From contig DATMJU010000703.1 in assembly GCA_035553795.1 (NCBI GenBank), forward strand, positions 1-34,487: a DNA stretch of 34,487 nucleotides, read 5' to 3'. Shown in pieces: positions 12,259 through 33,031 of this stretch. Position 1 is the stretch's first letter, and each line of letters begins with the position of its first letter. The translations under genes were made by a program, and so were the position numbers. The notes under the pieces were generated by a model, which saw only the letters and a list, made by a program, of their open reading frames with translations, did no database searches and was not told where the DNA came from. The stretch comes from Vicinamibacterales bacterium (GTDB lineage: Bacteria > Acidobacteriota > Vicinamibacteria > Vicinamibacterales > UBA2999).

Positions 12259-12978
12259 TCTTCGGCCTGTGTAGGACCTCTGAAATGTCTTCGGATCACC
12301 TACCTCGGTCAGTTCCCGTTATGCATGACCGCATCCAGTCACGCAGTCACCGGCTTGGCCGCCGCAGCGAACAGCTGCAGGCGTACGGAACTGATGTGGA
12401 GGACCGCCTAGCATATTGAGGCCGACGGCCTTAAGTGAGGGACTCGATTGTGATAGGACTGTGATACGTAGGGCTCACAACCTCGAAGAACATCGAGGTT
12501 TACGGACGCACACCGCCCGATAGTTCTGGAGGCTAAGACGCTGTTGGCGTGTGCGTTAGCGCGGCTCCGGGTTCGTCAGTGTGGCTCGCACGCTTCGCTT
12601 TCCAAGCGTGCCTGATCGACCGCTCCAGCATCTCTCCGTTTAGAATCAACAACTTGCAGTCACGAACATGCCGCGATCAGGGCGATTGTGATAAGTCCTC
12701 CAATGTGCCGCGATCACTTACGGGCTTTTCCAGTATAGCCGTGCCGTTGCTCCCTCAGTGAAACGACCGACGCGCGTCAATCCTGAGAAACGGAACGGTT
12801 GAAAACTGCTTCGAAACCTGAGTTCAACGGTCCTCAAAGATCTGCAACTTAATGCCGCGCTTCCGGACGCTAAGGGGGGATGCTACTCTCGAGTCCTGCA
12901 AGCCGAGTCACTGCACGACAACAGCCCGGTGTCGATCCCGCAGGCGAACGCGATCTCGCCGGCCTGCGCGGGGACTGC

Positions 12979-13294
12979 CTACTTTTTCGGTCCGGATACT
13001 TCGGCCTTGAACCCCGTCTTGTCCGTAATCGATTTGGCAATGGCCTCAGGGGTTCGTCTTCGATGCATCGAAGGTGATCTCCGCTGTGCCCTTTGGCTGG
13101 CTCACTTTCGCGGCCTTCACCCCGTCGATCTTCAGCGCTTCCTTTTCCACCCGTGCCGCACAGGCGCTGCATGCCATGCCTTCAATCTTCAACGTGCACA
13201 CGTCGCCGGCCGCGCGCGTCTCGTTCTGCGCAACTGCGGTGGAACCAAACCCCAGGAACCCGAGAATTGTCATGAGCGCCAGCACTCCCTTCAT
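12979..13294 (-). pseudogene. Periplasmic heavy-metal-associated (MerP/CopZ-like) protein, frame broken by one extra C in a C4 run (or sequencing error)
   Basis: Signal peptide MKGVLALMTILGFLGFGSTAVA followed by LKIEGMACSAC (GMxCxxC). The annotated frame stops after ...ITFDASKTNP (TGA at 13046-13048). The next frame continues PEAIAKSITDKTGFKAEVSGPKK* to TAG at 12979-12981, which is the expected alpha2-beta4 of the HMA fold. Confidence 0.75.
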
Positions 13295-13307: not shown

Positions 13308-14276
13308 TCAAAACGCGCGGCTGATCCCGAACTGGAAGATAGCCGACGAATCGAGCTGCTTGTTGGACAAGGATCGGTACAGCGGCAGTTTCACCTCAGC
13401 TTGCACGTTGACGCCCTTGCCAACCAGAACGCCGATCCCCGGAGTCACGTACAGCCAGTTGCCTCCGCCGACGAGTACGCGTGTGCCGCGGAAGGTGTCC
13501 TGCTGACGATGCAGCCAGCCCACGCGCGCGAGCCCCGTGATCCGGTGATGGCCAAGTTCCCGGGCGAGGCCAACATTCGTTTCGGCAGATGCGCCCGTCT
13601 GTAGCCCGTCGCCATTCTCGTAGAGGGGAATTCGAGCAGCCACACTGCCGAAGACCGTGGCCTTGCCGAACCGGCGGCCGATATGCGCGCCGGCGAGCGG
13701 GTCCACGGTGCCGGAACCACGCTGCAGGCGCGACATGGGCACCAGGCTTCCGTCCTGCAGTTCCGATCGAAAGCGGGGTGTCTCTGTTCGACCGGTGGGA
13801 ACGGACGTGCCGAAGTTCACGACCGGATACCACTGCCGAACCGGTCGCAACTTGTACCAGCCCACCACGGACGTGTCGCCGATGCCGCTGAACGTCTCAC
13901 TGAAATCGAGCGCACCAGAGGCCCTGGGAATCACGGCGGATCTCGTCACATCTGGTACGCTCGCCGCAGCCTGAATTCCGAACCGCTCTGTCAGTCTGAT
14001 ATCGAGTGTGAGGAGCGGTACGGTGATCTGCGTCCGCTCCCGCATCGGATTGTCGACCTCAGACGACCCGTCGTACGCGCGGTCACGGTCTTCCGTCACC
14101 AGCCATGCGCCCACCCGGAACCGGCTGCCTGCAACCCCCTCGGTCAATACGCCCCGCCACCCGGGCAGGTACGGATTCGCGCAGCCGCTTCACGTCATTT
14201 GGGCCGAGGCGGGACTCGGAAGTAGCCATGTACTCCCGGCGACCGCGAATGCGCAGATTGCGCGTCTGAACGTCAC
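13308..14276 (-). CDS. Outer-membrane beta-barrel protein (MetA/phenol-degradation-like 'transporter' type) with an in-frame TGA at 14190-14192
   Basis: GTG 14276 overlaps the upstream stop (GTGA) and follows GGGGG. It encodes a Sec signal peptide MTFRRAICAFAVAGSTWLLPSPASA-QMT, then TGA. The same frame continues SGCANPYLPGW... through alternating beta-strand sequence ending in the aromatic terminus ...FGISRAF. Confidence 0.6.
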
Positions 14277-14560
14277 ATGACCCCCAATATTTGAAGCGAG
14301 AGCACGAAGCCCGCCAACGTTGCCGTGACCGCAAGAACCTTGTTGAAAGACCCACCCTCGCGTCGGAGCGTTATCCAGAGTGTCGTCGCCAACATGAGGC
14401 CGCTGACGGACAGAAACGCGCCCTGGTAGGCGACGGCCGTCTGCGCGAACGCCACACCGCTCAGACCAAAGAGAGACATCGCAGCCGGAATCGCGCAGCA
14501 AGGCCGTGTGCAGAATCCAGCAACGGCGCCGACGATCGTCGTCATGAGGACTCTTCCCAT
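14273..14560 (-). CDS. MerT/MerF-like small metal-transport membrane protein (vicinal Cys pair in TM1)
   Basis: MGRVLMTTIVGAVAGFCTRPCCAIPAAMSLFGLSGVAF parallels MerT ...ASACCLGPLVLIALGFSGAW. About 3 TM helices. Start ATG overlaps the regulator's stop (TAATG at 14558-14562). The ORF-track N-terminal extension to 14686 overlaps the regulator gene and is rejected. Confidence 0.6.
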   Translation of the reverse strand: MGRVLMTTIVGAVAGFCTRPCCAIPAAMSLFGLSGVAFAQTAVAYQGAFLSVSGLMLATTLWITLRREGGSFNKVLAVTATLAGFVLSLQILGVM

Positions 14561-15027
14561 TATCGAGACCTCGCGCGGCGCCGAGCGATCTCCGGCGAGA
14601 ACTTCACGTCTGAGACGGACGGTTCTGCATCCGCAATGAACTGGCACAGGCCGTCGCAGGTGACACCGGCCTGCTGCTGGTCCCACTTCGCAAGCTCCGA
14701 AGCGAGCTGATTCCGGAACGCCTGGAGTTGCTGGATCCGTTCATCGACCGCCGCGAGGTGCTCGTGGCCCAGGGACAGCACCTGTGCGCACGGCTTCTTG
14801 CCGGCGCGCGAGAGCTGAAGGATCTCGGCGACCTCGTCGAGCGAGAAGCCGAGCGCCTGGGCCTTCTTGATGAAACGGAGCTCCTCGACTGTCTGCTCCG
14901 AGTACCGCCGGTAGCCTGACGAAGCCCTCGGAGCGCGCTTGAGCAATCCGATTGACTCGTAGTACCGGATCGTCGCGGTCTGTACTCCCGCACGTTCTGC
15001 AAGGTCACCGATGAGCAACGCACCCAT
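14560..15027 (-). CDS. MerR-family metal-responsive transcriptional regulator
   Basis: HTH LLIGDLAERAGVQTATIRYYESIGLL, GYRRY and dimerisation helix. Cys80 (KKPC) and C-terminal Cys124-x3-Cys128 (VTCDGLCQ), counted from ATG 15027. An alternative ATG at 15036 lies inside the predicted -10 element. Confidence 0.85.
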   Translation of the reverse strand: MGALLIGDLAERAGVQTATIRYYESIGLLKRAPRASSGYRRYSEQTVEELRFIKKAQALGFSLDEVAEILQLSRAGKKPCAQVLSLGHEHLAAVDERIQQLQAFRNQLASELAKWDQQQAGVTCDGLCQFIADAEPSVSDVKFSPEIARRRARSR

Positions 15028-15042
15028 GCTTCTCATTAGAAC

Positions 15043-15327: not shown

Positions 15328-15957
15328 CTAGTGCCGCACCTGACCGCCAGCGAAGTGCAAGAGCACGAACAGGAGCGCCACGATCGCGATGACGACGGCG
15401 ACATAGGGCCAGGGGGGCGTGCCCGTCGACGTGAGGGCCGACGCGGTGATGGCTGGACGACGCTCGGCCTGCCTCCGGCTGCCGTACGGTGTCATACCGA
15501 ACGGCTTATACACGCCGAGCACGGTCGCGACCACCAGCAAGACCAAAGCGAGGGTCGCATGAAGCGCCGGCGATAGATTCCGCACCAGCCCAAGCTCCAC
15601 GGTCGGATCTGCGGCGACGCCCGCCATCTGCCTGAACGTGCCCATATAGATCAACAGGATGACGGTCGCGAACGCCGTAATCAGCAGCTTCAGTACAACC
15701 CAGTAGTGCCGAATAAGGCCCCACGGGGTTCCTAGCGATATCACGATCCCACTCAGGAGCGACGCATGGGCGAGTGGGACGAGGACGAACCACGCGGCCG
15801 GCGCCATGACGAGGTAGGCGCCACACACGGTCGCTTCGTCTCGGCTGGTGAGCCCGATGACCGCGAGCGCGAGGAACGCGATCACTGCGCCGAGCCAGCC
15901 CACAGACGACGTGATGTGTGCCGTGAACGTGAATCTGCGCAGAGCGCTGGCCATCAT
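15328..15957 (-). CDS. Hypothetical polytopic membrane protein
   Basis: 209-aa ORF with 5-6 hydrophobic helices (VGWLGAVIAFLALAVIGL, VLKLLITAFATVILLIYM, YVAVVIAIVALLFVLL). No family recognised. Lies downstream of the ECF sigma gene on the same strand. Confidence 0.55.
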   Translation of the reverse strand: MMASALRRFTFTAHITSSVGWLGAVIAFLALAVIGLTSRDEATVCGAYLVMAPAAWFVLVPLAHASLLSGIVISLGTPWGLIRHYWVVLKLLITAFATVILLIYMGTFRQMAGVAADPTVELGLVRNLSPALHATLALVLLVVATVLGVYKPFGMTPYGSRRQAERRPAITASALTSTGTPPWPYVAVVIAIVALLFVLLHFAGGQVRH

Positions 15958-16061
15958 GGGAACAACTTCGACATGAAGTGGCGGCCCGACTCGCCACAGG
16001 AACTCAGAGCTGATTGTATGACGGCGAGGTGAACCGCTCCTGAACAGAACGGCCGACTAGT

Positions 16062-16613
16062 TCAGGCGCGCTTGCACGTGCAGTTCAGGCACCCGTGTTC
16101 GGCACACGCCCCGCAGGATTGCGTGACTCGCTTTTTGAGTGCTTCCCGCGCGCGAAACACACGCACGGCCGCGTTGCCCGGCGACAAGCCTCTCTGTTCC
16201 GCGAATGCCTTCACGGGCGTGCCGCCCACTTCAATCACCTGGAGCGCCTCGGCGTATTCCGGTTTCAACGTCCTCGCCAGGCGCGAAACGCACGCGCAGA
16301 TCTCGCCCTCGATCTCGTCGGTTGCTGCGTCGTGGGTTTCGAGTTCCCGCGCGAACGCCTCGTATGCCCGATTGGCCGCGCCACGGCGCCGGAACTGATC
16401 GACCGCCGCATTCCGTAACGTCCGATAAAACCAGGGGACGATTCCCTCGTCGTCGGGTGCCTGCTCGGGGCGCGTCACGACTTTCGCGAAGGCCTCCTGG
16501 AGGATGTCCTCGGCCAGTGCGCGGTCGCCCACGCGACCCTCCAGATAGCGGAGAAACGCGCGATGGTTCTCGATGAGCAAGGCGAGCGGAGCGTCGCGCT
16601 CGGCGGCATCCAC
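16062..16613 (-). CDS. ECF sigma factor with Cys-rich C-terminal extension (CorE-like)
   Basis: Region 2 (AEDILQEAFAKVV...WFYRTLRNAAVDQFRR) and region 4 (AFAEQRGLSPGNAAVRVFRAREALKKRV). CxC in the linker (EICACV) and C-terminal SCGACAEHGCLNCTC. GTG 16613 chosen because the longer ORF (to 17051) overlaps the divergent gene. Confidence 0.75.
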   Translation of the reverse strand: MDAAERDAPLALLIENHRAFLRYLEGRVGDRALAEDILQEAFAKVVTRPEQAPDDEGIVPWFYRTLRNAAVDQFRRRGAANRAYEAFARELETHDAATDEIEGEICACVSRLARTLKPEYAEALQVIEVGGTPVKAFAEQRGLSPGNAAVRVFRAREALKKRVTQSCGACAEHGCLNCTCKRA

Positions 16614-16721
16614 CAGCCCATTGTATGAGCTTGCAAGATCCGGTGCGGCAGTTGCATCGGAGAACCCGTCATCGGATCGCCGCTCATCGCCGAGCGCCGA
16701 CAGTCGAACTGGAGCTTTCGA

Positions 16722-17120
16722 ATGCAAACCAAAGAAATGATCGCCAGCCATCCCGACGTCAAGGGCAACGTCAATGAAGCGTTGCTGCAGTTCATCGAGG
16801 CGAGCTATGAATGTGCCCAGACCTGCACCTCGTGCGCAGACGCGTGTCTGGCTGAAGAGATGGTCGCACAGCTGCGCCAGTGCATTCGGCTGAACCTGGA
16901 TTGCGCGGATGTGTGCCTTGCGACGGCAACAGTGGCCAACCGCAGGACGGGCTCGAACGAGGAAGTCATCCGTAAGATGCTCGAGGCGTGCGTCAGCGCA
17001 TGCCGACTCTGCGCAGACGAATGTGAGCGGCACGCCTCGAAGCATGAGCACTGCCGGGTTTGCGCGGAGTCCTGTCGGCGGTGCGAAAAGGCATGTCAGG
17101 CGGCGTTGAAGATTTTTTAG
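16722..17120 (+). CDS. Cys-rich four-helix-bundle metal-binding protein (DUF326 type)
   Basis: Repeated Cys-spaced helices: CAQTCTSCADACL, CIRLNLDCADVCL, CVSACRLCADEC, HCRVCAESCRRCEKAC. Confidence 0.8.
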   Translation: MQTKEMIASHPDVKGNVNEALLQFIEASYECAQTCTSCADACLAEEMVAQLRQCIRLNLDCADVCLATATVANRRTGSNEEVIRKMLEACVSACRLCADECERHASKHEHCRVCAESCRRCEKACQAALKIF

Positions 17121-17261
17121 TGCGCGGTTGCTCCCCTTCCGGCCCCCTCGACCTGAGCATGGGCACTATCCCTGCATCCGAACCCGACGGACGCCGATGC
17201 TCAACGTTCGAAGCTAAGTCATCGCGCGGATGCGAACGGACGGGCTCGGACAGGGGGAACC

Positions 17262-17825
17262 ATGAAGCGGTCCGCGGTGCTCATCTCGTTGACGGTTGTG
17301 CTGGTCGTGGTGTTCCTGGGTCTGGGCCTGGTGGCATTCGCCTACTCCGGCGCCGCGAACGTCGCCGCCTCCGAGGATTACCTGCCCGGCGTCAAATGGT
17401 TCTTCGCCACGGTGTCGGACAACTCCATCAAGGCGCACGCCGAGGAAGCAGCGACCCGCGGCGAAATCTCGGAACCTGCCGAAGTAACCGACGCGATGCT
17501 GCGCAAGGGCGCGTCCGAGTACCAGGCGATGTGCGTGCCGTGTCACGGCACGCCGGGCGGTTCACGCGGTGAGTTCGGGCGAGGCATGAAGCCGGAGCCT
17601 CCGGACCTCGCGAACGTCGCGCGTGAGATGGAGCTGCGAGAGGTCTATTGGGTTCTTCACCACGGCATCCGCCACACCGGGATGCCGGCGTTCGGCGGCA
17701 GCCATTCCACAGAAGACCTGTGGGCGATCGCCACGTTCGTCGAGCGCTTCGACGAAATGACGCCCGCACAGTACGAGCAGTGGATCAAGGAGTCGGGGGC
17801 CAAAATCAACTCGCACTCGCACTGA
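17262..17825 (+). CDS. Membrane-anchored mono-haem c-type cytochrome
   Basis: N-terminal TM anchor LISLTVVLVVVFLGLGLVAF, CxxCH motif (MCVPCHG) and distal Met region HTGMPAF. Confidence 0.8.
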   Translation: MKRSAVLISLTVVLVVVFLGLGLVAFAYSGAANVAASEDYLPGVKWFFATVSDNSIKAHAEEAATRGEISEPAEVTDAMLRKGASEYQAMCVPCHGTPGGSRGEFGRGMKPEPPDLANVAREMELREVYWVLHHGIRHTGMPAFGGSHSTEDLWAIATFVERFDEMTPAQYEQWIKESGAKINSHSH

Positions 17826-17921
17826 GAGCATCATCACCCGCGGATGCGCGCCTATGACTGTGGCACTGTAATGAGAGGCGCGGGGGTGCGTGAAGGCAGT
17901 ACAACCAACAGGAGGCTGTAC

Positions 17922-18065
17922 ATGGAACGCGATGTCGTCTGCGGTATGCAGGTGGATCCCGCCAAGGCGGCGGGGACGAGTGAACACAACGGGAAGACGT
18001 ACTACTTCTGCTCGAAGGGGTGCAAAGCCAAGTTCGACGCAAGTCCTTCTCAGTTCGATCGATAG
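17922..18065 (+). CDS. Small YHS/TRASH-domain metal-binding protein
   Basis: AGGAGG at 17910-17915, then ATG 17922. Encodes MERDVVCGMQVDPAKAAGTSEHNGKTYYFCSKGCKAKFDASP, the YHS pattern (CGM...Y(Y/F)FCS..C). Confidence 0.75.
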   Translation: MERDVVCGMQVDPAKAAGTSEHNGKTYYFCSKGCKAKFDASPSQFDR

Positions 18066-18160
18066 GGTCGACGGGGCGCTCCGACGGAGGGCCCCGCAAC
18101 CTCCTCCGTTCGGGGGTGTAATGGAAATCCGGGCGATGCGTGATCGGGGTGGAGGTTGAC

Positions 18161-20609
<2,449 letters not shown>

Positions 20610-20613
<4 letters not shown>

Positions 20614-21080
20614 CGGGAGGCCGCGTGGCGTATACTCGTTTCGTGCGCCTCGTCTGGCAGCGGACAATCAGCGTCGCCGTGCTGTCCCTCCTCGCGACCC
20701 TTCCCGTGAGCGGGCCGGTCTGCGCCGTGCTCTGCGCGCCTCCGGCACAGGACGAATACGCCACGGCGGGACATCACGATCAGCACGCCGATCATGATCA
20801 GCACGCCTCAGTGCCACCCGATCGCGAGTCGCACGTGAATCAGGCTGCCATGGGTGCTCCGCCGCATCAGAACTGCAGTAGCCATCAAGCACTTGGGGAT
20901 GTCACAGCCGCGTCGCTGTCAGCCGTGCGGGCTGATGTCGGCCTCATCACGGCCGTGCAGCACGTTCTCCCGATGGCTGCGTATCTGTCCCGACCGATGC
21001 CGCTCCGCGTGTACTCGGGCTCGAGTCCACCGCTCGACACGCCATCGCCCACGTGCGCTCCGCTCGTTCTCCGCATCTGA
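20610..21080 (+). CDS. Hypothetical His/Cys-rich secreted or anchored protein
   Basis: GTG overlaps the copA stop (GTGA). Hydrophobic N-terminus [25 protein letters not shown] (CxxxC), then [16 protein letters not shown] and C-terminal ...TCAPLVLRI. Confidence 0.45.
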
Positions 21081-21148
21081 TCGCCCTCCCGTAGGCGCCT
21101 CCCTCGAGTCGCGCCCAGCCTCCTGACAGTTCACTCGGCCGCGCAGCG

Positions 21149-21168
21149 GCGCCACGCGCATGTGGCGC
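21149..21168 (+). terminator. GC-rich hairpin GCGCCAC-GCGCAT-GTGGCGC downstream of the ATPase operon
   Basis: 7-bp perfect stem read from the sequence, with only a weak T-rich tail (TGAAACTTGTCTT). A second hairpin lies at 21181-21212 (GTCTTCG...CGAAGAC). Confidence 0.25.
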
Positions 21169-21279
21169 GGCCTGAAACTTGTCTTCGGCGAAGAGCTAAC
21201 GCCGACGAAGACGCCACCGCATCACGCACGACGGCGGGCGGCAGTGACGCCGACCGCATGAGCATCGATCAGACGCAAC

Positions 21280-23199
21280 ATGAGACTTCAGAAGCATCCG
21301 CGCAATCCATCGTTGTCACGGCCATCGCGCCGGACGTTCGTCAAGGGCCTGGCCATGGGCGGCGTGGCCGCCGGGCTCGGCCTGTGGGGTGAGCGCGCCT
21401 GGGCCCAGGGTGTGGCGCGCCGCGACACGGGCGTGCTGTCGGGCACCGAGTTCGACCTGGGCTTCGAGGAGACGCTGGTGAACTTCACCGGTGCGCCCCG
21501 GTTCGCGCACGCCGTGAATCGCTCGATCCCGGCCCCGATTCTGCGCTGGAAAGAGGGCGATACCGTGACGCTGCGCGCCTCGAATAGGCTGGCGGACGAC
21601 TACGCCTCGATTCACTGGCACGGCATTCTGCTGCCGGCCAATATGGACGGCGTTCCGGGTCTGAGCTTCAACGGCATAGCCCCTGGCGAAACGTATGTCT
21701 ACCGGTTCGATGTGAAGCAGGGCGGCACGTACTGGTATCACAGCCACTCGGCGTTCCAGGAACAGCTCGGACTGTACGGCGCGCTCATCATCGAACCGCG
21801 AGAGCCAGAGCCCTTCCGCTACGACCGCGAGCACGTCGTCCTCCTGTCGGACTGGACGGATGAAGATCCCGAGCGCGTGTTCGCAAAGTTGAAGAAGCAG
21901 GCGGACTACTACAACTTCAACAAGCGCACGGTCGGAGACCTGTTCCGCGACATCCGCAGGCGCGGCCTGGGCGAGACACTGGTCGACCGCGCCGCGTGGG
22001 GCGAGATGCGGATGACGCCGACGGATCTGGCCGACGTCTCGGGCTACACCTACACCTACCTGATGAACGGGACGGCACCGGCCGGCAACTGGACGGGGAT
22101 GTTCAAGCCCGGCGAGCGCGTCCGCCTGCGTTTCATCAACGGCTCGTCGATGACCTACTTCGATGTCCGCATCCCCGGTCTGAAGATGACCGTGGTCGCC
22201 GCCGACGGCCAGAACGTCCATCCCGTCACCATCGACGAGTTCCGGATTGCGGTCGCGGAAACGTTCGACGTCATTGTTGAACCGACCGGCCAAGACGCGT
22301 TCACGATCTTCGCGCAGTCGATGGACCGCACCGGCTACGCCCGCGGCACTCTGGCGGTCCGCGAAGGGCTGAGTGCCCCGGTGCCGGAGCCCGATCCTCG
22401 CCCGCTGCTCACCATGGCGGACATGGGCCACGGAGGGATGGGTCACGACATGAGCGCAATGGGCACGGCAGCGGCGCCGGCAGCCAAGCCTGACGATCCG
22501 CACGCCGGGCACAAGATGCCGTCCCCGAAAGCCGTCGCCGCGGACCCGCACGCCGGTCATACCGCGCCGCCGCAGAAACCTGTCGCGCCTGATCCACACG
22601 CGGGCCACAACATGCCCGCGCAGAAGCCACAGGCGCCCGATCCGCACGCTGGTCATGACATGGCCTCGATGACGATGCAGTCGCACCCGCCAAGCGAAGA
22701 GGGGAATCCGCTGGTGGACATGCAGACGATGATGCCGACGTCGCGCCTCGACGATCCGGGCATCGGTCTCCGGGACAACGGTCGCCGCGTTCTGACATAT
22801 GCGGATCTCAGGAGTCTGTTCGACGACCCTGACGGACGGGAGCCGGGCCGGACGATCGAACTGCATCTGACGGGGCACATGGAGCGGTTCGCCTGGTCGT
22901 TCGACGGCGTGAAGTTCTCGAACGCGGCACCGCTCCGGCTCACCTACGGCGAGCGCCTGCGCATCGTCCTGGTCAACGACACGATGATGACCCACCCGAT
23001 ACATCTGCATGGCATGTGGAGCGATCTCGAGGGCGACGACGGCGAGTTCCTCGTCCGCAAGCACACCATCGACATGCCGCCCGGCACGAAACGGAGTTAT
23101 CGCGTGCGCGCCGACGCGCTGGGCCGCTGGGCGTATCACTGCCACCTGCTCTACCACATGGAAGCGGGCATGTTCCGGGAAGTGAGGGTCGAAGAATGA
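21280..23199 (+). CDS. Copper-resistance multicopper oxidase (CopA/PcoA type) with Tat signal and His/Met-rich repeat insert
   Basis: Tat motif SRRTFVKG. Copper ligand motifs HWHG, WYHSH, HPIHLHG and HCHLLYHMEAGM. Confidence 0.9.
   Translation: MRLQKHPRNPSLSRPSRRTFVKGLAMGGVAAGLGLWGERAWAQGVARRDTGVLSGTEFDLGFEETLVNFTGAPRFAHAVNRSIPAPILRWKEGDTVTLRASNRLADDYASIHWHGILLPANMDGVPGLSFNGIAPGETYVYRFDVKQGGTYWYHSHSAFQEQLGLYGALIIEPREPEPFRYDREHVVLLSDWTDEDPERVFAKLKKQADYYNFNKRTVGDLFRDIRRRGLGETLVDRAAWGEMRMTPTDLADVSGYTYTYLMNGTAPAGNWTGMFKPGERVRLRFINGSSMTYFDVRIPGLKMTVVAADGQNVHPVTIDEFRIAVAETFDVIVEPTGQDAFTIFAQSMDRTGYARGTLAVREGLSAPVPEPDPRPLLTMADMGHGGMGHDMSAMGTAAAPAAKPDDPHAGHKMPSPKAVAADPHAGHTAPPQKPVAPDPHAGHNMPAQKPQAPDPHAGHDMASMTMQSHPPSEEGNPLVDMQTMMPTSRLDDPGIGLRDNGRRVLTYADLRSLFDDPDGREPGRTIELHLTGHMERFAWSFDGVKFSNAAPLRLTYGERLRIVLVNDTMMTHPIHLHGMWSDLEGDDGEFLVRKHTIDMPPGTKRSYRVRADALGRWAYHCHLLYHMEAGMFREVRVEE
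22495..22671 (+). repeat. In-frame tandem 48-nt (16-aa) repeats DPHAGHxMPxxKPxAP, 3.7 copies, inside the multicopper oxidase
   Basis: Units DPHAGHKMPSPKAVAA / DPHAGHTAPPQKPVAP / DPHAGHNMPAQKPQAP / DPHAGHDMASM. Unit boundaries at 22495, 22543, 22591 and 22639. Confidence 0.85.
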
Positions 23200-24137
23200 G
23201 CGGCGGGCTGGTGTTGCGCGCACTGATGATCATCATGGCCGCCGTAGTGGCATTCCCGTCGGTGGTCGCGGGGCAGGCGCCGTCTGCGCCTCTTCCCGCA
23301 CCGCCTCACGAGCACGGCGGTCACGAGGCCTCGCAGGCGAAGCCACAACCGCCGCCACCGCCAAAGCAGGGTCACCCCACGCACAAGCCTGGCGATCCGG
23401 CGCCCTATCCGCCTGGCCAGCCTCCACCGACCGGGCTTCCTCCCATTACGGACGAAGACCGGAAAGCGGCGTTTCCCGAGCTCCACGGACAGCACACGGT
23501 GCACGATGACGCCGTGTTCACCTACGTGCTGTTCGATCAGCTGGAGTGGCAGGCGGGCGACGGCAGCTCAAGTTTCAGCTGGGACAACAAGGGCTGGATC
23601 GGTCGTGACGTGAACCGATTCTGGTTCCGGACGGAAGGAGAGGCCGCAGACGGCGATCTCGGTGAAGCGGAGGCCCATACGCTCTACGGGCGCGCGATCG
23701 CTCGCTGGTGGGATCTGGTGGTCGGCGTTCGCCAGGATGTCCGGCCCGGTCCGGCCCGGACATGGGCGGCTGTCGGCATACAGGGCCTCGCGCCGTACTG
23801 GTTCGAGGTGGAGGCAACGGCGTACGTCGGTGAGTCCGGCCGTACGCACGTCCGTCTCGAGAGCGAGTACGAGCTGCTGCTCACCAATCGATTGGTCCTT
23901 CAGCCCCTTGTGGAAGTTGACATCTACGGGAAGTCGGACCCCCAACGCGGCCTGGGCGCTGGATTGAGCTCGATGAACGCGGGCCTCCGCCTCCGCTACG
24001 AGATTCGGCGCGAGCTTGCGCCCTACGTGGGCGTCACCTGGAATCGCAAGTTCTTCGGTACCGCCGATCTGGCGAAGTCGGAAGGCGAGGACATCGGCGA
24101 AGCGCGGCTGGCGCTCGGCGTACGGGTCTGGTTTTAG
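23196..24137 (+). CDS. Copper resistance protein B (CopB/PcoB outer-membrane protein)
   Basis: ATG 23196 overlaps the oxidase stop (ATGA). Signal peptide, Pro/His-rich N-terminus, then FDQLEWQ...WFRTEGE...YVGVTWNRKFFG, ending VRVWF. Confidence 0.8.
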   Translation: MSGGLVLRALMIIMAAVVAFPSVVAGQAPSAPLPAPPHEHGGHEASQAKPQPPPPPKQGHPTHKPGDPAPYPPGQPPPTGLPPITDEDRKAAFPELHGQHTVHDDAVFTYVLFDQLEWQAGDGSSSFSWDNKGWIGRDVNRFWFRTEGEAADGDLGEAEAHTLYGRAIARWWDLVVGVRQDVRPGPARTWAAVGIQGLAPYWFEVEATAYVGESGRTHVRLESEYELLLTNRLVLQPLVEVDIYGKSDPQRGLGAGLSSMNAGLRLRYEIRRELAPYVGVTWNRKFFGTADLAKSEGEDIGEARLALGVRVWF

Positions 24138-24145
24138 ATGCGCAG

Positions 24146-24778
24146 GTGCCTATGATCAAACGCATTGGGAAGTGGCTTGTCATTGCCTTCGCGCTCGTCG
24201 GTGTCGCCACCGCTGTGGGCGCGATCGCATTCCTCTCGTCCGGCATCAGCGCCAGACCGGAACCCAGTGCATTCGAGGCAGCTGCCGCTGGCCGGCTGCG
24301 GGCGCTGGCGATCCCCGCGTCGGCGAAGAATCAAAGCAATCCGGTATCCCTGGACGATGGGGTGATCGAAGCCGGTATGGCTCACTGGGCGGATCACTGC
24401 GCCCTGTGCCACGCGAACAACGGCGACGGACAGACCGAGATCGGGCGTGGGCTGTACCCGCGGGCGCCCGATATGCGGCTGCCGGCCACGCAGGACCTCA
24501 GTGACGGCACCTTGTTCTACATCATCGAGAACGGCGTGAAGCTCACGGGAATGCCCGCGTGGGGCACCGGAACACCCGAGGGAGAACACGAGAGCTGGAA
24601 GCTAGTGCACTTCGTCCGCCAGCTGCCGAAGCTGACACCGGAGCAGATCGAGCGGATGGAAGCGATGAACCCGCGCAGCCTCGAGAGCTCGACCGAGGAG
24701 GAAGAGATCCGGCGGTTCCTGGAAGGCGAAGGAGCCGCGCCGAAACGCACGAAACCGAAGCATGGAGGACACGAATGA
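24146..24778 (+). CDS. Membrane-anchored mono-haem c-type cytochrome (paralogue of 17262-17825)
   Basis: TM anchor WLVIAFALVGVATAVGAIAFL, CxxCH (HCALCHA) and LTGMPAWG. Start is GTG 24146 or ATG 24152. Confidence 0.8.
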   Translation: MPMIKRIGKWLVIAFALVGVATAVGAIAFLSSGISARPEPSAFEAAAAGRLRALAIPASAKNQSNPVSLDDGVIEAGMAHWADHCALCHANNGDGQTEIGRGLYPRAPDMRLPATQDLSDGTLFYIIENGVKLTGMPAWGTGTPEGEHESWKLVHFVRQLPKLTPEQIERMEAMNPRSLESSTEEEEIRRFLEGEGAAPKRTKPKHGGHE

Positions 24779-25113
24779 TACGGACGAATCGTACAACGCG
24801 AGGCGCCCTGGTCGTCCTGGGGCTCGCGCTGGTGCTGGCGGTCCCTGCCGCCGCCCATGAGCAGAAATTCATGGGCACGGTCGCCTCGATCGAAGGCGAG
24901 CACCTGCACATCACGACGACCGAGAAGAAGGAGGTCATGGTGATGCTGCACGACAGAACGAAGATTCTCAGGGGCAAGGAAGCCGCGAAAGCGGAAGACA
25001 TCAAGGTCGGCGAGCGGATCGTCGTCATCACGACGGACGGCAAGGACAAGAACGGCAAGGCCATGTTGATGGCGAAGGAAGTACGGCTCGCGGCGACGAA
25101 CGGTAATTACTAG
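24775..25113 (+). CDS. Small periplasmic beta-rich protein (possible OB-fold metal chaperone)
   Basis: ATGA overlap with the upstream stop. Signal peptide ALVVLGLALVLAVPAAA-HEQ. His/Met residues (HEQKFMG, GEHLHI, VMVMLH) and KVGERIVV. Confidence 0.55.
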   Translation: MIRTNRTTRGALVVLGLALVLAVPAAAHEQKFMGTVASIEGEHLHITTTEKKEVMVMLHDRTKILRGKEAAKAEDIKVGERIVVITTDGKDKNGKAMLMAKEVRLAATNGNY

Positions 25114-25139
25114 ATCGTCAGGCTGAGAGGGAGACTGAG

Positions 25140-25673
25140 ATGAGGCGAATCATGATCGCGGCGGGGCTGTGTGCGCTCCTCTCCGGGGCGGCTTTGGCGC
25201 AGGTGACGGTGGGGGGCGGCGAGCAGACTGGCGGACACGACGGACACGACGGACATCAGGCCTCCCTCTCGACCGGAGAAGTTGCCCTGATCGAGAAGCG
25301 GCTGGCCGAGTACGACGCGGCGTTCAACGCGAAGGACCTGGAGAAGCTTGGCACCTTCTATCACCCTGACGTGACTATCTACGAAGGGGGCGGCGTCGAC
25401 AACGGATGGGCAGCCTATCGAGACGGCCATCTCGGACCTGAGTTGAAAGCGTTTGAGAACCTGCAGTTCGGGCATCGGGATATCACGGTCTCGATTCTGC
25501 CGGGTGGCCAGTCCGCCTATGTCCGGTCGGAGTACTTCCTCAAAGCGAAGATGGGGACGCGCGAAATCGACTCCTCCGGGCTGGCCACCTACGTGCTGAT
25601 CAAAGGCGAGAACGGCTGGAAGATCCGCCATTCGCATACGTCCAGCCGGCCACGCCGGCCTGCAGGTGGATAG
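25140..25673 (+). CDS. Secreted NTF2/SnoaL-like (DUF4440-like) protein with N-terminal GHDGHDGH motif
   Basis: GAGGGAG SD and signal peptide AAGLCALLSGAALA-Q. The pattern LIEKRLAEYDAAFNAKDLEKLGTFYHPDVTIYE...WKIRHSH is typical of the NTF2-like fold. Confidence 0.55.
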   Translation: MRRIMIAAGLCALLSGAALAQVTVGGGEQTGGHDGHDGHQASLSTGEVALIEKRLAEYDAAFNAKDLEKLGTFYHPDVTIYEGGGVDNGWAAYRDGHLGPELKAFENLQFGHRDITVSILPGGQSAYVRSEYFLKAKMGTREIDSSGLATYVLIKGENGWKIRHSHTSSRPRRPAGG

Positions 25674-25739
25674 CGCCCAACGGGCTCAATCGATTTCGAG
25701 TTCGCGAATGCACCCACGAACGATCAGACAGGGGGAGCG

Positions 25740-26621
25740 ATGCAGATGAGCTACTGGCGATTCGCCGCGATGATCGCCACGTCCACGCTGGTGATGTTTG
25801 GGCTGATGTACATCCACACCTATATCTGGGACCATGCGTTCTTCAGTGAGACGCGGGCGTGGATGGCGCTGCTCATGGGGGCGGTGATGGCGATCATCAT
25901 GCTCGGCTACATGCTGAACATGTACAAGAATCGCACGGTGAACATCGCCATCTTCGTCGGAGCGGCCCTGGCCTTTGGGTTGACGACGTGGCTGGTGCGT
26001 TCGCAGGTGACCGTGAGCGGCGTCGATTTCATGCAGGCGATGATCCCGCATCACTCGATCGCCATTCTCACGAGCGAACGGTCCGGCATCGAAGATCCGC
26101 GCGTGCGCAAGCTCGCCGACGAGATCATCGAGGCCCAGCGTAAGGAGATCGCGGAGATGAAGTACCTGATTCGCGCGCTGGAGCGCGAAGGCGTACAGCC
26201 AGACCGCAAGCCGAAGGCCCCGGCCGAAGAGATGCCGGCCGGCGAGGCGGCCCGGCGCGCCGACCTCACCACGACCGACCTCGAGTCGCTCACTGATGAG
26301 GAACTGCGGCGGGTGCTCGGGTCTGGACCGGTCTGCCGGTTCGGCTACGCGGCGGGCGATGCGGCAGTGGCTGCCGCGACGGTGCCGGGCGCCGGCGACA
26401 GCCGCGGCGTGATCAAGCTGCACGGCCGCCTGGTTCCGATGACGGTTCGATACCAGACGTTAGCGGGGGACGGTTTCGAGTTGTCGAGTGACGACGTCAC
26501 GGTCGTGGCCGCTGCGTACGAGGGCGCGGCCGAGAATGAGGCGCGGCAGGCCGATGCCCGGCTGCGGATCGGAAAGGATCTGGAAGTGGGGTATGGCGGA
26601 TTCTACAAGTGCACACAGTAG
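25740..26621 (+). CDS. Membrane protein with a DUF305 (ferritin-like, MIPHH) domain and an extra C-terminal domain
   Basis: GGGGGAG SD. Four N-terminal TM helices. FMQAMIPHHSIAILTS...LADEIIEAQRKEIAEMKYLI is the DUF305 signature. A further ~110-aa C-terminal region is unrecognised. Confidence 0.65.
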   Translation: MQMSYWRFAAMIATSTLVMFGLMYIHTYIWDHAFFSETRAWMALLMGAVMAIIMLGYMLNMYKNRTVNIAIFVGAALAFGLTTWLVRSQVTVSGVDFMQAMIPHHSIAILTSERSGIEDPRVRKLADEIIEAQRKEIAEMKYLIRALEREGVQPDRKPKAPAEEMPAGEAARRADLTTTDLESLTDEELRRVLGSGPVCRFGYAAGDAAVAAATVPGAGDSRGVIKLHGRLVPMTVRYQTLAGDGFELSSDDVTVVAAAYEGAAENEARQADARLRIGKDLEVGYGGFYKCTQ

Positions 26622-26645
26622 CCGACCTACCACAACGAGCATAGA

Positions 26646-26659
26646 GTCACATATGTGAC
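26646..26659. promoter_or_regulatory. Perfect 14-bp palindrome GTCACATATGTGAC upstream of the ZIP transporter (candidate metalloregulator operator)
   Basis: Read directly from the sequence, 28 nt upstream of ATG 26687. AT-rich core in a GC-rich context. Confidence 0.4.
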
Positions 26660-26686
26660 AAGCGCAGATCTGAGTTCACAACATCC

Positions 26687-27454
26687 ATGAGTGAACTGTG
26701 GCAGGTCCTCCTCTTATCGCTTCTCCCGGGCGCCGGGAACTTTGCCGGCGGGCTGATTGCCGAGTTCTGGAAGCCGTCGCCGCGTCTGCTGAACTGGGCC
26801 TTGCACGCGGCGTCCGGCATCGTGATCGCTATCGTCGCTGTTGAACTGATTCCCAATGCCTTGAACGTCCTGGCCGGCTGGTGGCTCGCAGCGGCATTCG
26901 GCGCCGGCGGACTGGTGTACATCGCTCTCCAAGCAGGCGTACAACAGCTGCAGTCCAGGCAGGCCGGCCAAAAGCGAACTGGCATGTGGATGATCTACAT
27001 CGCCGTCGCGATCGATCTCGCCAGCGACGGACTGGTGCTCGGCGCGGGTTCGGCGGTGTCCTTGTCCCTCGCGATCGTTCTGGCCTCTGGGCAAATCCTC
27101 GCCGACGTGCCCGAGGGGTACGCCTCCATTGCCACGTTTCGGTCCAATAACGTTCCGCGCCGCAAGCGCCTGTGGCTGTCGGCCTCATTCGTAATGTTCT
27201 GTACTGCCGGCGCCATGCTCGCGTACTTCGGCTTGCGGGGCGCGCCGGAATCGTTCCAGATGGCGGCCTTGGTCTTTGTTGCAGGGCTGCTGACGTTGGC
27301 GGCAGTTGAGGACATCTTGGAGGAAGCGCACGAATCACGCGAAGACACCAAGTACTCAACCCTCGCGTTTCTTGTCGGCTTCGTCCTGTTCACTTTGGTG
27401 TCGGTCGGCCTCGAATCGATCGTCGAAGGTGCGGCGACGACCGGGACGCGTTGA
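26687..27454 (+). CDS. ZIP-family divalent metal transporter (ZupT-like)
   Basis: 255 aa and polytopic. GNFAGGLIA, HAASGIVIAIVAVELIP and LADVPEGYA (variant of the HNxPEG motif) fit the ZIP arrangement. Confidence 0.7.
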   Translation: MSELWQVLLLSLLPGAGNFAGGLIAEFWKPSPRLLNWALHAASGIVIAIVAVELIPNALNVLAGWWLAAAFGAGGLVYIALQAGVQQLQSRQAGQKRTGMWMIYIAVAIDLASDGLVLGAGSAVSLSLAIVLASGQILADVPEGYASIATFRSNNVPRRKRLWLSASFVMFCTAGAMLAYFGLRGAPESFQMAALVFVAGLLTLAAVEDILEEAHESREDTKYSTLAFLVGFVLFTLVSVGLESIVEGAATTGTR

Positions 27455-27552
27455 ACGGCGGCCGGTAGCTCGAAAGGAGCCACCCCGCGAGGACGATCAC
27501 TGCGATCGGCTGCGCACGACCTGGACATCCATGCCGAAGGTTTCTTCCACGA

Positions 27553-28350
27553 TCAGCCCCTCAGGCGAAGGATGCGTATGGCGCCGTTCAGGACGACAAG
27601 CGCGATAACGGCCGCAACGACAAGGTCGGGGACATTCGACCCGGTCAGCCCGACGAGGCCAGCAGCCACAATCACACCCAGGTTCGCGACCACGTCGTTC
27701 GTCGTGAAGATCCAGCTCGCTTTCATGTGCGCACCACCGTGGCGGTGGCGTGCGAGCAACCACATGCAGGTGACGTTTGCGATCAGCGCCGCGAGTGCAA
27801 CGACGACCATGAGCGGCGCTTCAGGCTCGCTTCCAAACACCACGCGGCGGAAGACCTCGGCGAGTGCGCCGATGGCCAGCAACAGCTGCAGGACGCCACT
27901 GACGTGCGCGGCCCTGAGCTGAGTGGCCTGCGCACGATGGACTCCGAACAGCGCAATGGCGTACACCGCGGCGTCGGCGAACATGTCCAGAGAGTCGGCC
28001 AGCAGTGCAGATGAATCTGCTACCCAGGCACCGATGGCTTCGCCGGCAAACATCCCCGCGTTAATCGCGAGCACGATCTTCAGCGTGCGAGTTTCCTCCG
28101 CACTGGAAGGAGGCTCCACTTCATCGACCTCGGAGGCCTCGGTGGTCTCCAGAATCGCGGCCCCAAGGTTCAGCGGCCGAATGATATTCGCGATGTCCTG
28201 GGCGTCGCCCTCGTGCACGACCACGAGCTCGCGCGCGTCGAGGAACGCCTGGATTCGATGCACCTCCTCGCGTCCTCGAAGAGCCATCCGAACCAGTCGC
28301 TCCTCAGCCGCGCAATCCATCTTCGGGACTGCGAATCGTGTCTTGTTCAT
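27553..28350 (-). CDS. CDF-like cation transporter with N-terminal HMA-variant domain (MDCxxEE) and no C-terminal cytoplasmic domain
   Basis: FAVPKMDCAAEERLVRMAL resembles the MDCPTEE-type HMA variant of Zn/Cd/Pb pumps. TM2 LLADSLDMFADA and TM5 TTNDVVANLG align with the CDF metal site. The ORF ends right after TM6. Confidence 0.65.
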   Translation of the reverse strand: MNKTRFAVPKMDCAAEERLVRMALRGREEVHRIQAFLDARELVVVHEGDAQDIANIIRPLNLGAAILETTEASEVDEVEPPSSAEETRTLKIVLAINAGMFAGEAIGAWVADSSALLADSLDMFADAAVYAIALFGVHRAQATQLRAAHVSGVLQLLLAIGALAEVFRRVVFGSEPEAPLMVVVALAALIANVTCMWLLARHRHGGAHMKASWIFTTNDVVANLGVIVAAGLVGLTGSNVPDLVVAAVIALVVLNGAIRILRLRG

Positions 28351-28985
28351 GCTGCGCGGTCTGTCGACGGCGAGCCGCTGTCGTTCTTGATTAGCGTCAC
28401 CACGCGGTACGTCCCTCCAAAGGCGACGGGTTGGTCGTGTTCGATCGCGAGTGGAGTTCCAGCAACCAGCGGGCCGAATCTGCGATTCAGGTCCGAGAAC
28501 AGCGGCTTGGCGAGCGCATTGAACGCGCGTCGCTTCAGCGAAGGCCGCTCCTCATCCCTGAGAAACTTGTCGAACACCCCGATCCTGCCTCCGGGCTTCA
28601 GCACCCGAGCCGCTTCCCGTAAGCCTCGTTCCGGGTCAGGCATGACCGCGAGGATCAAGTGCATCAAGACGGCGTCGAAAGACGAATCGGGGAATGCAAG
28701 CTGCCTCGCGTCCATGATCCGCGTGGTCACAGACTGACGTGTGCTCGCCGCACGCTGTTCGAGTCGTTTCAGCATGGCCGGCGTGACATCAACCGCGGTC
28801 ACATCGGCGTTCGAGGGCAGGTGCGGCAGATCCAGTCCCGTTCCGGCGCCCACTATCAACACCCGATTGCCCGGAGCCAGCCGCAGCCGCTCGATTGACG
28901 AACGACGCGCGGCCTCGAATCCGGCTGCGTTCGCAATGAGGTCGTACGCCGGCGCCCAGACGGTATAACGCACTCGATTCCACAT
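28347..28985 (-). CDS. Class I SAM-dependent methyltransferase
   Basis: Motif I VLIVGAGTGLD, post-I VTAVDV, and motif II/III DAVLMHLIL...LKPGGRIGVFD. No Cys residues. ATGA overlap with the downstream CDF gene. Confidence 0.75.
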   Translation of the reverse strand: MWNRVRYTVWAPAYDLIANAAGFEAARRSSIERLRLAPGNRVLIVGAGTGLDLPHLPSNADVTAVDVTPAMLKRLEQRAASTRQSVTTRIMDARQLAFPDSSFDAVLMHLILAVMPDPERGLREAARVLKPGGRIGVFDKFLRDEERPSLKRRAFNALAKPLFSDLNRRFGPLVAGTPLAIEHDQPVAFGGTYRVVTLIKNDSGSPSTDRAA

Positions 28986-28991
28986 GGGTAT

Positions 28992-29921
28992 TCAGTGACT
29001 CTGTCGAATTGGAGGATCCTGCGTTGCGTGCGCCACACCGTCGCATGTCGGATCCCGGTCGATCTGAATTGTGGAGTGCTGAATGCCGAAGCGCTCGGCG
29101 AGTACGCGCTGCGCGGACGCCAGCACGACGTCCCGCTTCGTTGGGTCGGCGCAGGTGACATGGGCAGACAGGGCAACAAAGCCGCTCGTAATCGTCCAAA
29201 CGTGCAGGTCATGAACGCTCGACACACCGGGCAGGTCAAGCAATGCAAAGCGCACGTCGTCCACCTTCACGTTTCCTGGCGCTCCTTCCATCAGCACCGC
29301 AACTGATTGGGCAATCAGAGACCAGGACGAATAGATCACCAGCAGCCCAATCAAGACAGAGGCGACAGGGTCGATCCAATCCCATGCAAATGCCCAAATC
29401 AGGGCTCCGGCAACAATGGCCTGGATGCTTCCCAACGCGTCGGTCAGCACGTGAAGCCACACGCCACGCACGTTGAGATTGCCTTCGCGGCCTCGGCGCA
29501 GGATCCAGAGTCCCGCGCCATTAACAAGCAAGCCGCCGCACGCGACAGCCAGCATCAGTGGCCCCTGGACCTCTGGCGGGTCACGAAACCGTTCGAACGC
29601 TTCGACGAAGATGTAGATAGCAATCGCGACGAGCGTCGCACCGTTCGCGAGCGCTGCCAGGATTTCCGCACGGTAATACCCATACGTCCGCTCGGCCGTC
29701 GGCCGTCGTCGAGCCACCTTCATGGCGAACAGCGTGAGTGCAAGTGCACCGGCATCCGACAGCATGTGTCCGGCGTCCGCCAGGAGTGCGAGTGAGCCGG
29801 ACAGGATGCCCCCGACCACTTCGAGACCCATGTACAGGACCACGAGCCCCAACGTGATGGCGATGGGCCGCGACTGGCTGCCCGCTTGGAGCCCGGTCTC
29901 GTGTCGGTGGTCGTGTGCCAT
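28992..29921 (-). CDS. czcD: Cation diffusion facilitator (CzcD/ZitB type)
   Basis: His-rich N-terminus MAHDHRHE. TM2 LLADAGHMLSDA and TM5 HVLTDALGS (HD-HD site). C-terminal cytoplasmic domain with HDLHVW. Confidence 0.8.
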   Translation of the reverse strand: MAHDHRHETGLQAGSQSRPIAITLGLVVLYMGLEVVGGILSGSLALLADAGHMLSDAGALALTLFAMKVARRRPTAERTYGYYRAEILAALANGATLVAIAIYIFVEAFERFRDPPEVQGPLMLAVACGGLLVNGAGLWILRRGREGNLNVRGVWLHVLTDALGSIQAIVAGALIWAFAWDWIDPVASVLIGLLVIYSSWSLIAQSVAVLMEGAPGNVKVDDVRFALLDLPGVSSVHDLHVWTITSGFVALSAHVTCADPTKRDVVLASAQRVLAERFGIQHSTIQIDRDPTCDGVAHATQDPPIRQSH

Positions 29922-29924
29922 CAG

Positions 29925-33023: not shown

Positions 33024-33031
33024 GGCAAGCC

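Follow-up and report, generated by a model that had tools for sequence, protein, structure and literature searches.

The stretch of DNA analyzed here (the window) comprises positions 1 to 34,487, forward strand, of contig DATMJU010000703.1 from a Vicinamibacterales bacterium of the phylum Acidobacteriota (GenBank assembly GCA_035553795.1) and encodes, on its minus strand, a predicted outer-membrane beta-barrel protein in which the signal peptide is separated from the barrel by a single in-frame TGA (14192-14190). We propose, with a probability of about 85%, that this TGA is a programmed selenocysteine (Sec) codon. The proposal is supported by the conservation of the UGA across homologous loci, where it is replaced by Cys codons only, and then by a conserved, covarying hairpin downstream of it. 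The bacterial paradigm of Sec insertion, exemplified by fdhF and fdnG of Escherichia coli, involves a Sec insertion sequence (SECIS), SelB and tRNASec; by extension of this established mechanism, SelB carrying Sec-tRNASec would bind the hairpin at 14173-14150 on the translating mRNA and insert Sec at the UGA. The parts of the gene are the following.

13308-14276, minus strand: complete gene of the predicted selenoprotein, a single frame via TGA 14192-14190 with its own stop TGA at 13310-13308
14202-14276, minus strand: GTG start and signal peptide of the general secretory type, MTFRRAICAFAVAGSTWLLPSPASA, 25 residues by translation
14190-14192, minus strand: UGA codon read as Sec, residue 29 of the precursor and residue 4 of the predicted mature protein
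14181-14183, minus strand: TGC, the Cys partner in the U-S-G-C motif; the main clade has TGC or TGT here, a U-x-x-U subclade TGA
13308-14189, minus strand: mature body, in which a flexible N-terminal tail, SGCANPYLPGWRGV, precedes a 12-stranded outer-membrane beta-barrel that ends ...FGISRAF

Translation of the minus strand yields V/M-TFRRAICAFAVAGSTWLLPSPASA-QMT-*-SGCANPYLPGWRGVLTEGVAG..., with the frame unbroken to the stop at 13310-13308, and read-through of the TGA gives a precursor of 322 residues including Sec. The GTG start (14276-14274) follows a GGGGG (14285-14281) and overlaps, within the sequence GTGA (14273-14276), the TGA stop (14275-14273) of an upstream open reading frame (ORF) for a small membrane protein that ends ATG-TGA (14278-14273). 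The original prediction had described this GTG overlapping a MerT-like stop after a run of five Gs, as well as the signal peptide, QMT and TGA that continue in the same frame into the barrel, and all of these features are found on the minus strand as described. The signal peptide is predicted, by the -3/-1 rule alone, to be cleaved after A-S-A, which would produce the mature N-terminus QMT-U-SGC (in full, QMT-U-SGCANPYLPGWR). A lipoprotein reading, with the Cys of S-G-C as the lipobox Cys, was rejected because the -3 position would be occupied by Sec and the A-S-A cleavage site lies before it. The mechanically generated ORF list contains for the barrel gene only a TTG-initiated ORF of 279 amino acids (aa; 14147..13308).

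A protein-database search with the read-through product as the query identified 610 relatives, the best 120 of which are 245-281 aa long, are 69-100% identical to the query and cover at most 87% of it; all 120 lack the signal peptide and are truncated at or beyond the UGA position. Because none of these best 120 homologues reaches the signal peptide, it appears that gene callers break the gene at the same point everywhere, and NCBI records of metagenome-assembled genomes (MAGs) name the truncated ORFs 'hypothetical protein'. A third protein-database search, run with a distant-homologue alignment, returned the same close family only. We therefore turn to the DNA itself, represented by 16 genome loci (Vicinamibacterales/Acidobacteriota MAGs) and 80 metagenome loci from soil, with the codon count resting on the 77 loci that contain the UGA region and in which the identity of the barrel ranges from 100% down to approximately 50%.

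The codon preceding the motif [SA]G[C]-ANPYLPGW is TGA in 75 of these 77 loci and TGT (Cys) in the remaining two (L079 and L082), which answers the question, raised in the original prediction, of whether Cys or Sec occupies this column in the orthologues. The two Cys forms correspond to the proteins P0122 and P0271, which are full-length (305 aa) and read ...SGQT-C-TGC-ANPHLP, with the motif C-T-G-C. The second Cys of the motif is invariant or is itself replaced by TGA: in a subclade of about 16 loci with 51-55% identity (L057, L059, L062, L063, L065-L067, L069, L070, L072-L074, L077, L078, L080 and L089), the partner Cys codon is also TGA, resulting in GQT-U-AG-U, a U-x-x-U motif. In this subclade, the MerR gene is in the divergent orientation. 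An additional database protein, P0166, reads ...SAQMT-W-SG-W-ANPYLPGW, with Trp in both positions, which suggests that some pipeline translated the contig with a code in which TGA is Trp and that this protein is another U-x-x-U member, with a QMT-type end of the signal peptide. One locus (L010) with a typical QMT-U-SGC gene and MerR, MerT-like and HMA neighbours comes from a record binned as Verrucomicrobiota (Chthoniobacterales), and is either a mis-binned contig or a case of horizontal transfer of the operon.

In every locus for which upstream sequence is available, the TGA is preceded in frame by a signal peptide that terminates in A-S-[AG]-Q-(M)-T. The protein sequence encoded by the 14 codons that lie between the UGA and the earliest potential start downstream is conserved, with variation at synonymous sites. 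Purifying selection is seen on both flanks of the UGA. In distant Cys-only relatives (25-34% identity), CC, CxC, CxxC or CxxxC very often directly follows the signal peptide; because these Cys pairs occupy the same place, the N-terminal thiolate cluster looks ancestral, and Sec would be a clade-specific upgrade. Three of the features by which bacterial selenoproteins are recognized are found here, namely a conserved in-frame UGA with coding sequence on both sides, Cys homologues aligned to the UGA (the loci L079 and L082, and the distant relatives) and, computationally, a downstream stem-loop with a G-containing apical loop at a suitable distance.

This stem-loop, which resembles a SECIS, was delineated from an RNAalifold consensus of 15 sequences and pair counts over 68 sequences and consists of the following elements.

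14150-14173, minus strand: SECIS-like hairpin as a whole
C14173-G14150, G14172-C14151 and U14171-G14152, minus strand: lower stem, with A14170 bulged
14169-14164 (CCUGCC) and 14158-14153 (GGCGGG), minus strand: paired strands of the upper stem
14163-14159, minus strand: loop CGGGU (consensus NGGNU), which begins 26 nt past the UGA

The core of the hairpin, CCUGCC/CGGGU/GGCGGG (14169-14153, 21 nt past the UGA), had been recognized in the original prediction and is present as given there, with the addition of the three lower-stem pairs (14173-14171 with 14152-14150), which had been missed. A longer outer stem that was proposed to enclose it, CGGCUGC (14187-14181) with GCAGCCG (14128-14122), does exist in the window; it was rejected as a conserved feature because 73.5% of its cells are paired, with 12-36 of the 68 sequences unpaired at several pairs. 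For the hairpin itself, 88.9% of the cells are paired, and it is retained in every Sec form.

Folding of single sequences is uninformative in such GC-rich DNA (z-scores from -0.3 to -0.85), and the minimum free energy (MFE) folds of 51-nt stretches vary among the homologues; the case for the hairpin is therefore built on covariation, on the 27-nt hairpin taken in isolation and on changes counted along a tree. Where the third positions of a Pro and a Gly codon pair in the lower stem, the pair is GC in 37 sequences, AU in 11, CG in three and GU in one, with A opposite U without exception, and the A-U state is found in at least six separate clades of the tree of the barrel body. On this tree, third positions in the stem are nearly fixed, with 1-5 changes, compared with 13 and 23 changes at the two third positions in the loop. 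Two synonymous substitutions, G39C (CUG->CUC) and G51A (CGG->CGA), always co-occur and shift the upper stem by one register, leaving the loop unchanged; this pair is found in the U-x-x-U clade and, separately, in L010 and L035. For each of the Sec forms, synonymous-codon resamples of its peptide fold, on average, less well than the natural sequence. The two Cys forms lack a hairpin of this type and have a different peptide in this region (PHLPSADAM and PHLPNGDAV). In the U-x-x-U forms, the loop begins 17 nt past the second UGA. In the bacterial SECIS (bSECIS) model of Zhang and Gladyshev from 2005, the distance from the UGA to the loop is reportedly about 16-37 nt, with a G in the first two loop positions, and both the 26 nt and the 17 nt distances fit this range. 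Apparently, one hairpin serves two UGAs located 9 nt apart in the U-x-x-U forms. The MFE folds of this clade contain an additional small hairpin that carries the second UGA at its apex, and the first UGA pairs with a downstream GCUCA.

A second predicted case of Sec decoding is found in the same operon. In two loci (L047, nt 1376, and L048, nt 1882), the adjacent downstream HMA gene has a TGA at the first Cys of the GMxCxxC motif, which reads GMI-U-THC and GMI-U-AQC, respectively, and the HMA domain is clearly recognized when Cys is substituted for Sec. This gene has its own hairpin, GCGGC-GGUCAGA-GCCGC, 12 nt past its TGA, and is on these grounds predicted to be a second selenoprotein gene of the operon. 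A scan of the window for ORF pairs that are split by a single TGA and have a coding-like G+C content at third codon positions detected only antisense artefacts of real genes. Acidobacteriota include known users of Sec (PMC12013277, Table 2).

AlphaFold2, run with an alignment that included the distant relatives, predicts an all-beta barrel with a mean local confidence (pLDDT) of 91 and a predicted template modelling score (pTM) of 0.87. A Foldseek search identified the closest structures as FapF (5o65, E = 8e-13, TM-score 0.72) and the COG4313 channel Pput2725 (4rl8, E = 3e-10, TM-score 0.69-0.75), and by these measures the model has the 12-stranded barrel that defines the COG4313/FapF channels. 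A family profile (A5) searched against PDB sequences retrieves FapF (8e-13) and 4RL8 (3e-3), which indicates, at the level of profile similarity, a superfamily relationship as opposed to membership in the curated COG4313/PF13557 family. The window protein has no Pfam match, and its close relatives have none even at E-values up to 1; PF13557 is reached only by a distant relative, P0147 (1.4e-6). When the protein is searched at full length with Cys in place of Sec, no NCBIfam (release 20) model is matched at E-values up to 0.01. In Pput2725, the N-terminal segment of approximately 14 residues is folded inside the 12-stranded barrel, at its periplasmic end (PMC4493636).

The genes adjacent to the barrel gene are the following.

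14560-15036, minus strand: MerR-family metal-responsive regulator (Pfam MerR, MerR_1 and MerR-DNA-bind)
14273-14560, minus strand: small membrane protein of 95 aa with an F-C-x-R-P-C-C motif, weakly MerT-like
12975-13294, minus strand: periplasmic HMA (MerP/CopZ-like) protein with a signal peptide and a GMACSAC motif (Pfam HMA, 5e-12)

The regulator has one Cys in KKPC and another two in TCDGLC, three in total. Its stop overlaps the start of the small-membrane-protein gene (TAATG, 14558-14562) in the same manner as the stop of the latter overlaps the barrel start, and the HMA gene begins 14 nt past the barrel gene; the overlapping junctions point to translational coupling, in which case the regulator would share a transcript with its targets. 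Across the loci, the barrel gene has a MerR-family gene immediately upstream in about 45 cases and an HMA gene immediately downstream in about 38, and the gene for the small membrane protein precedes it in about 17. In the window, the HMA gene is frameshifted past ...DASKTNP, with the remainder, PEAIAKSITDKTGFKAEVSGPKK, in the next frame and an extra C near 13050 in the run AACCCCTGAGG; the homologous loci have an intact gene, and the frameshift is either an assembly error or real.

These observations allow us to outline a possible function. The precursor would be exported through the general secretory pathway and cleaved to a 297-residue, 12-stranded outer-membrane barrel of the FapF/COG4313 type, the flexible N-terminal tail of which would start with QMT-U-S-G-C. 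The selenolate/thiolate pair of the tail could bind a soft metal, either Cu(I) or Hg(II), and possibly As(III) or Cd(II). The equivalent tail of COG4313 channels lies in the periplasmic mouth of the barrel. The site might relay the metal between the channel, the periplasmic HMA protein and the small Cys-rich protein of the inner membrane under the control of the MerR-family metal sensor. We consider the transfer of a soft metal, in one direction or the other, between such a MerR-controlled tail site and the HMA or small membrane protein to be a tentative assignment that falls a little short of even odds. A more elaborate scheme is somewhat less probable still: the proteins would form a family of passive channels of the outer membrane that is abundant among soil Vicinamibacterales, and their N-terminal plug or tail would use its Sec-Cys or Sec-Sec pair to capture Cu(I), Hg(II) or As(III) and hand it off along a MerR-controlled route from the outer membrane to the periplasmic HMA protein and on to the inner membrane, with the Sec form as the rule and the Cys form as the rare exception.

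Several points speak against this functional assignment. None of the three partners reaches the equivalog cutoff of the respective NCBIfam model: the regulator, for which MerR, CueR and ZntR are the best matches, scores 104.7 bits against 150.85 for MerR, the small membrane protein 17 bits (E = 0.0057, merT_RC607) against 130 for MerT and the HMA protein 44.4 against 92.55 for MerP, the latter two scores being far too low. No MerA (that is, no pyridine-nucleotide disulfide reductase) was detected among the approximately 35 ORFs of the window scanned with Pfam, which leaves small or unscanned ORFs as possible carriers. Because the three partners are below the cutoffs and MerA was not seen, the operon is best described, on sequence criteria, as mer-like in logic and not as a mer operon. 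Furthermore, the Cys-form locus L079 is not part of a metal operon and has no MerR or HMA neighbours, and residues 1-14 of the model (the tail SGCANPYLPGWRGV) have a pLDDT below 50, so the model does not fix the position of the tail relative to the barrel.

The main functional rival is that Sec is inserted and the U-x-x-C is not a metal ligand but a redox centre, that is, a selenenylsulfide switch or an oxidoreductase-like site involved in channel gating or substrate reduction. Most U-x-x-C selenoproteins are indeed thiol-oxidoreductase-like (PMC13188914), and a motif on a flexible tail would be able to form a selenenylsulfide. Against such a role, the AlphaFold2 model contains no thioredoxin-like fold, the gene is in most loci tightly linked in an operon to a MerR-family sensor and an HMA protein inside metal/metalloid resistance islands, and several metal-handling selenoproteins with the same motifs have already been recognized (NF041115, NF045683; PMC13188914). 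On balance, we regard the redox role as unlikely.

The identification of the UGA as a Sec codon also has to be weighed against a number of observations that count against it. The hairpin of the window, taken alone, is not more stable than dinucleotide shuffles (z = -0.3), in agreement with the caution in the original prediction that a hairpin in GC-rich DNA is not diagnostic. The conserved amino acids fix much of the stem and leave few pairs free to covary, a G.A mismatch is present in the lower stem in three small clades, and no Rfam family matches at the gathering threshold or in a permissive scan. The two Cys forms carry, about 20-40 nt past the TGT, a different small hairpin which, in a sample of only two sequences, could be a chance occurrence or a relic. 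These hairpins, CACUU-GCC-AAGUG and CCCCAUUU-GCC-AAAUGGGG, differ by one compensatory change from U-A to C-G. Finally, ARAGORN detected no tRNA-Sec in the window and the 16 genome loci, and tblastn with E. coli queries detected no match to SelA, SelB or SelD in the window and all 96 loci; the scattered loci searched amount to 564 kb, a sample too small for this to count as absence.

The lack of Sec machinery in the searched sequence is compatible with the possibility that the UGA is read through as an amino acid other than Sec, namely as Cys by a tRNASec-like tRNACys, through an opal suppressor of the acidobacterial allo-tRNA type, or as Trp or Gly by a near-cognate tRNA stimulated by the hairpin. 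Reports exist of unusual suppressor-type tRNAs in Acidobacteria and of SelC*-type tRNACys in other phyla, but SelC* tRNAs have not been reported from Acidobacteria (PMC5389517). A genome-wide suppressor would conflict with the use of TGA as the main stop codon: TGA terminates 18 of the 25 Pfam-supported ORFs in the window, including the barrel gene itself (after its C-terminal Phe), and genome-wide reassignment of TGA was rejected for the same reason. Moreover, the alternation of Sec and Cys, the U-x-x-C and U-x-x-U motifs, the G-rich loop at a distance typical of SECIS and the UGA-for-Cys replacement in the neighbouring HMA gene constitute a standard selenoprotein signature, and read-through with another amino acid appears quite improbable compared to Sec insertion.

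Even less probable is that the UGA is a true stop that separates a 28-codon leader ORF from a barrel gene starting downstream. A TTG is present at 14147, and gene callers annotate a product with a downstream start everywhere, but the called start varies among the homologues, and the TTG is replaced by CTG or CTC in many loci. A separately started barrel would lack the signal peptide that it needs to reach the outer membrane; the supposed leader is a canonical signal peptide that is in frame in all cases, the codons between the UGA and the downstream start encode a conserved peptide, and the homologues with a Cys codon are translated straight through. The original prediction also allowed for a nonsense mutation in a decaying gene or a base-calling or assembly error, and the one-base frameshift in a C run of the adjacent HMA gene does show that the assembly or the locus is not flawless; this indel has no bearing on the TGA, and both alternatives are effectively excluded because the same TGA is conserved, with purifying selection on both flanks, in 75 independent loci from various samples and assemblers with identity down to approximately 50%. 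The reading put forward in the original prediction, Sec in a U-x-x-C motif at the mature N-terminus of a barrel encoded in a thiophilic-metal operon, is thus strengthened by the TGA conservation and the covarying hairpin.

The predicted element shares with known bacterial SECIS an in-frame UGA, a stem-loop within the coding region whose apical loop opens with G residues, and homologues with Cys codons; its hairpin sequence is unrelated to that of fdhF. The protein shares with COG4313 channels (Pput2725, 4RL8; PF13557, Phenol_MetA_deg) and FapF (5O65) a predicted 12-stranded barrel of equal size with a short N-terminal segment before strand 1. It lacks the coiled coil of FapF, and the members of this group have been linked to hydrophobic substrates or amyloid export, not to metals; we know of no member with Sec or with an N-terminal Cys pair. 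The operon resembles the Mer set for Hg(II) uptake and the HMA copper chaperones in combining a MerR-family regulator, a small membrane protein with a Cys cluster in the first helix, a periplasmic HMA protein with GMxCxxC and translational coupling, but the surrounding island is mainly of the copper type (P-type ATPase with YHS, multicopper oxidase, CopB), and, to our knowledge, classical mer operons contain no outer-membrane component.

Among selenoproteins, the replacement of a metal-ligand Cys by Sec and the U-x-x-C or U-x-x-U motifs are shared with metal-handling families, namely MerT-family proteins with C/SxxU, the MerT/CopZ fusion (NF045683), the UxxU HMA protein (NF041115), a Sec-containing P-type ATPase and the SO_0444 Cu/Zn efflux transporter, and the HMA neighbour in L047 and L048 belongs to this kind. 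These proteins are soluble or reside in the inner membrane, whereas the window protein is a predicted outer-membrane barrel without sequence relationship to them. Sec in an outer-membrane beta-barrel is found in GSU2204 of the MtrB/PioB type (NF041027) and in the TonB-dependent receptor FCYXU (NF049945); these are, respectively, a 26-strand porin-cytochrome sheath and a 22-strand receptor that differ from the window protein in fold, size and position of Sec, and neither NCBIfam model matches it. They are also the only two outer-membrane entries in an inventory of 119 prokaryotic selenoprotein families from May 2026 (PMC13188914), which contains no entry of the COG4313/FapF type. The deep-Sep and BSepDB papers make no mention of membrane proteins of this kind, and a literature search yielded no paper connecting Vicinamibacteria with selenoproteins. 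Within the limits of these sources, the barrel proteins represent an undescribed selenoprotein family that employs a known decoding mechanism.

Such a family would have remained invisible to annotation because the hundreds of database entries (245-281 aa) are all truncated alike and lack the signal peptide and the only Sec/Cys motif. It would add an outer-membrane channel to the selenoprotein inventory, extend the use of selenium to a widespread, largely uncultured soil lineage and point to selenolate chemistry at the cell surface or in the periplasm in metal resistance. The compact natural SECIS, apparently sufficient for two UGAs, may be of help in recoding studies, and the protein is a candidate, open to experiment, for the step at the outer membrane in mer/cop-like metal trafficking. 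If the proposed capture and hand-off of metals is correct, this would be the first selenoprotein among channels of this type and might explain how thiophilic metals pass the outer membrane.

Beyond the operon, the segment of the window between 15328 and 34222 is a dense metal-resistance island with the following content.

16062-17051: ORF for a sigma factor of the extracytoplasmic function (ECF) type, with an implausibly long N-terminal extension
within 15328-34222: Cys-rich DUF326 protein, two cytochromes c, YHS protein, P-type ATPase, multicopper oxidase, CopB, DUF305 and ZIP proteins
within 15328-34222: a methyltransferase, an RND pump plus its adaptor, and two CDF proteins, of which one is an HMA-CDF fusion

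The loci L018, L050, L058 and L060 likewise encode a P-type ATPase, CopB or a multicopper oxidase. In L012, the barrel gene is preceded by genes for an ArsM-like S-adenosylmethionine-dependent methyltransferase with CC motifs and for a protein of the low-molecular-weight protein tyrosine phosphatase (LMW-PTP)/ArsC type, and because of these neighbours the barrel family appears to occur in an arsenic-type context as well. In four of the U-x-x-U loci (L062, L072, L073 and L074), a short, extremely Cys-rich ORF (...TPATCGCTCCERGACCCGCCTGKK*) ends just upstream of the barrel signal peptide, and its product may be either a peptide resembling metallothionein or some other metal partner.

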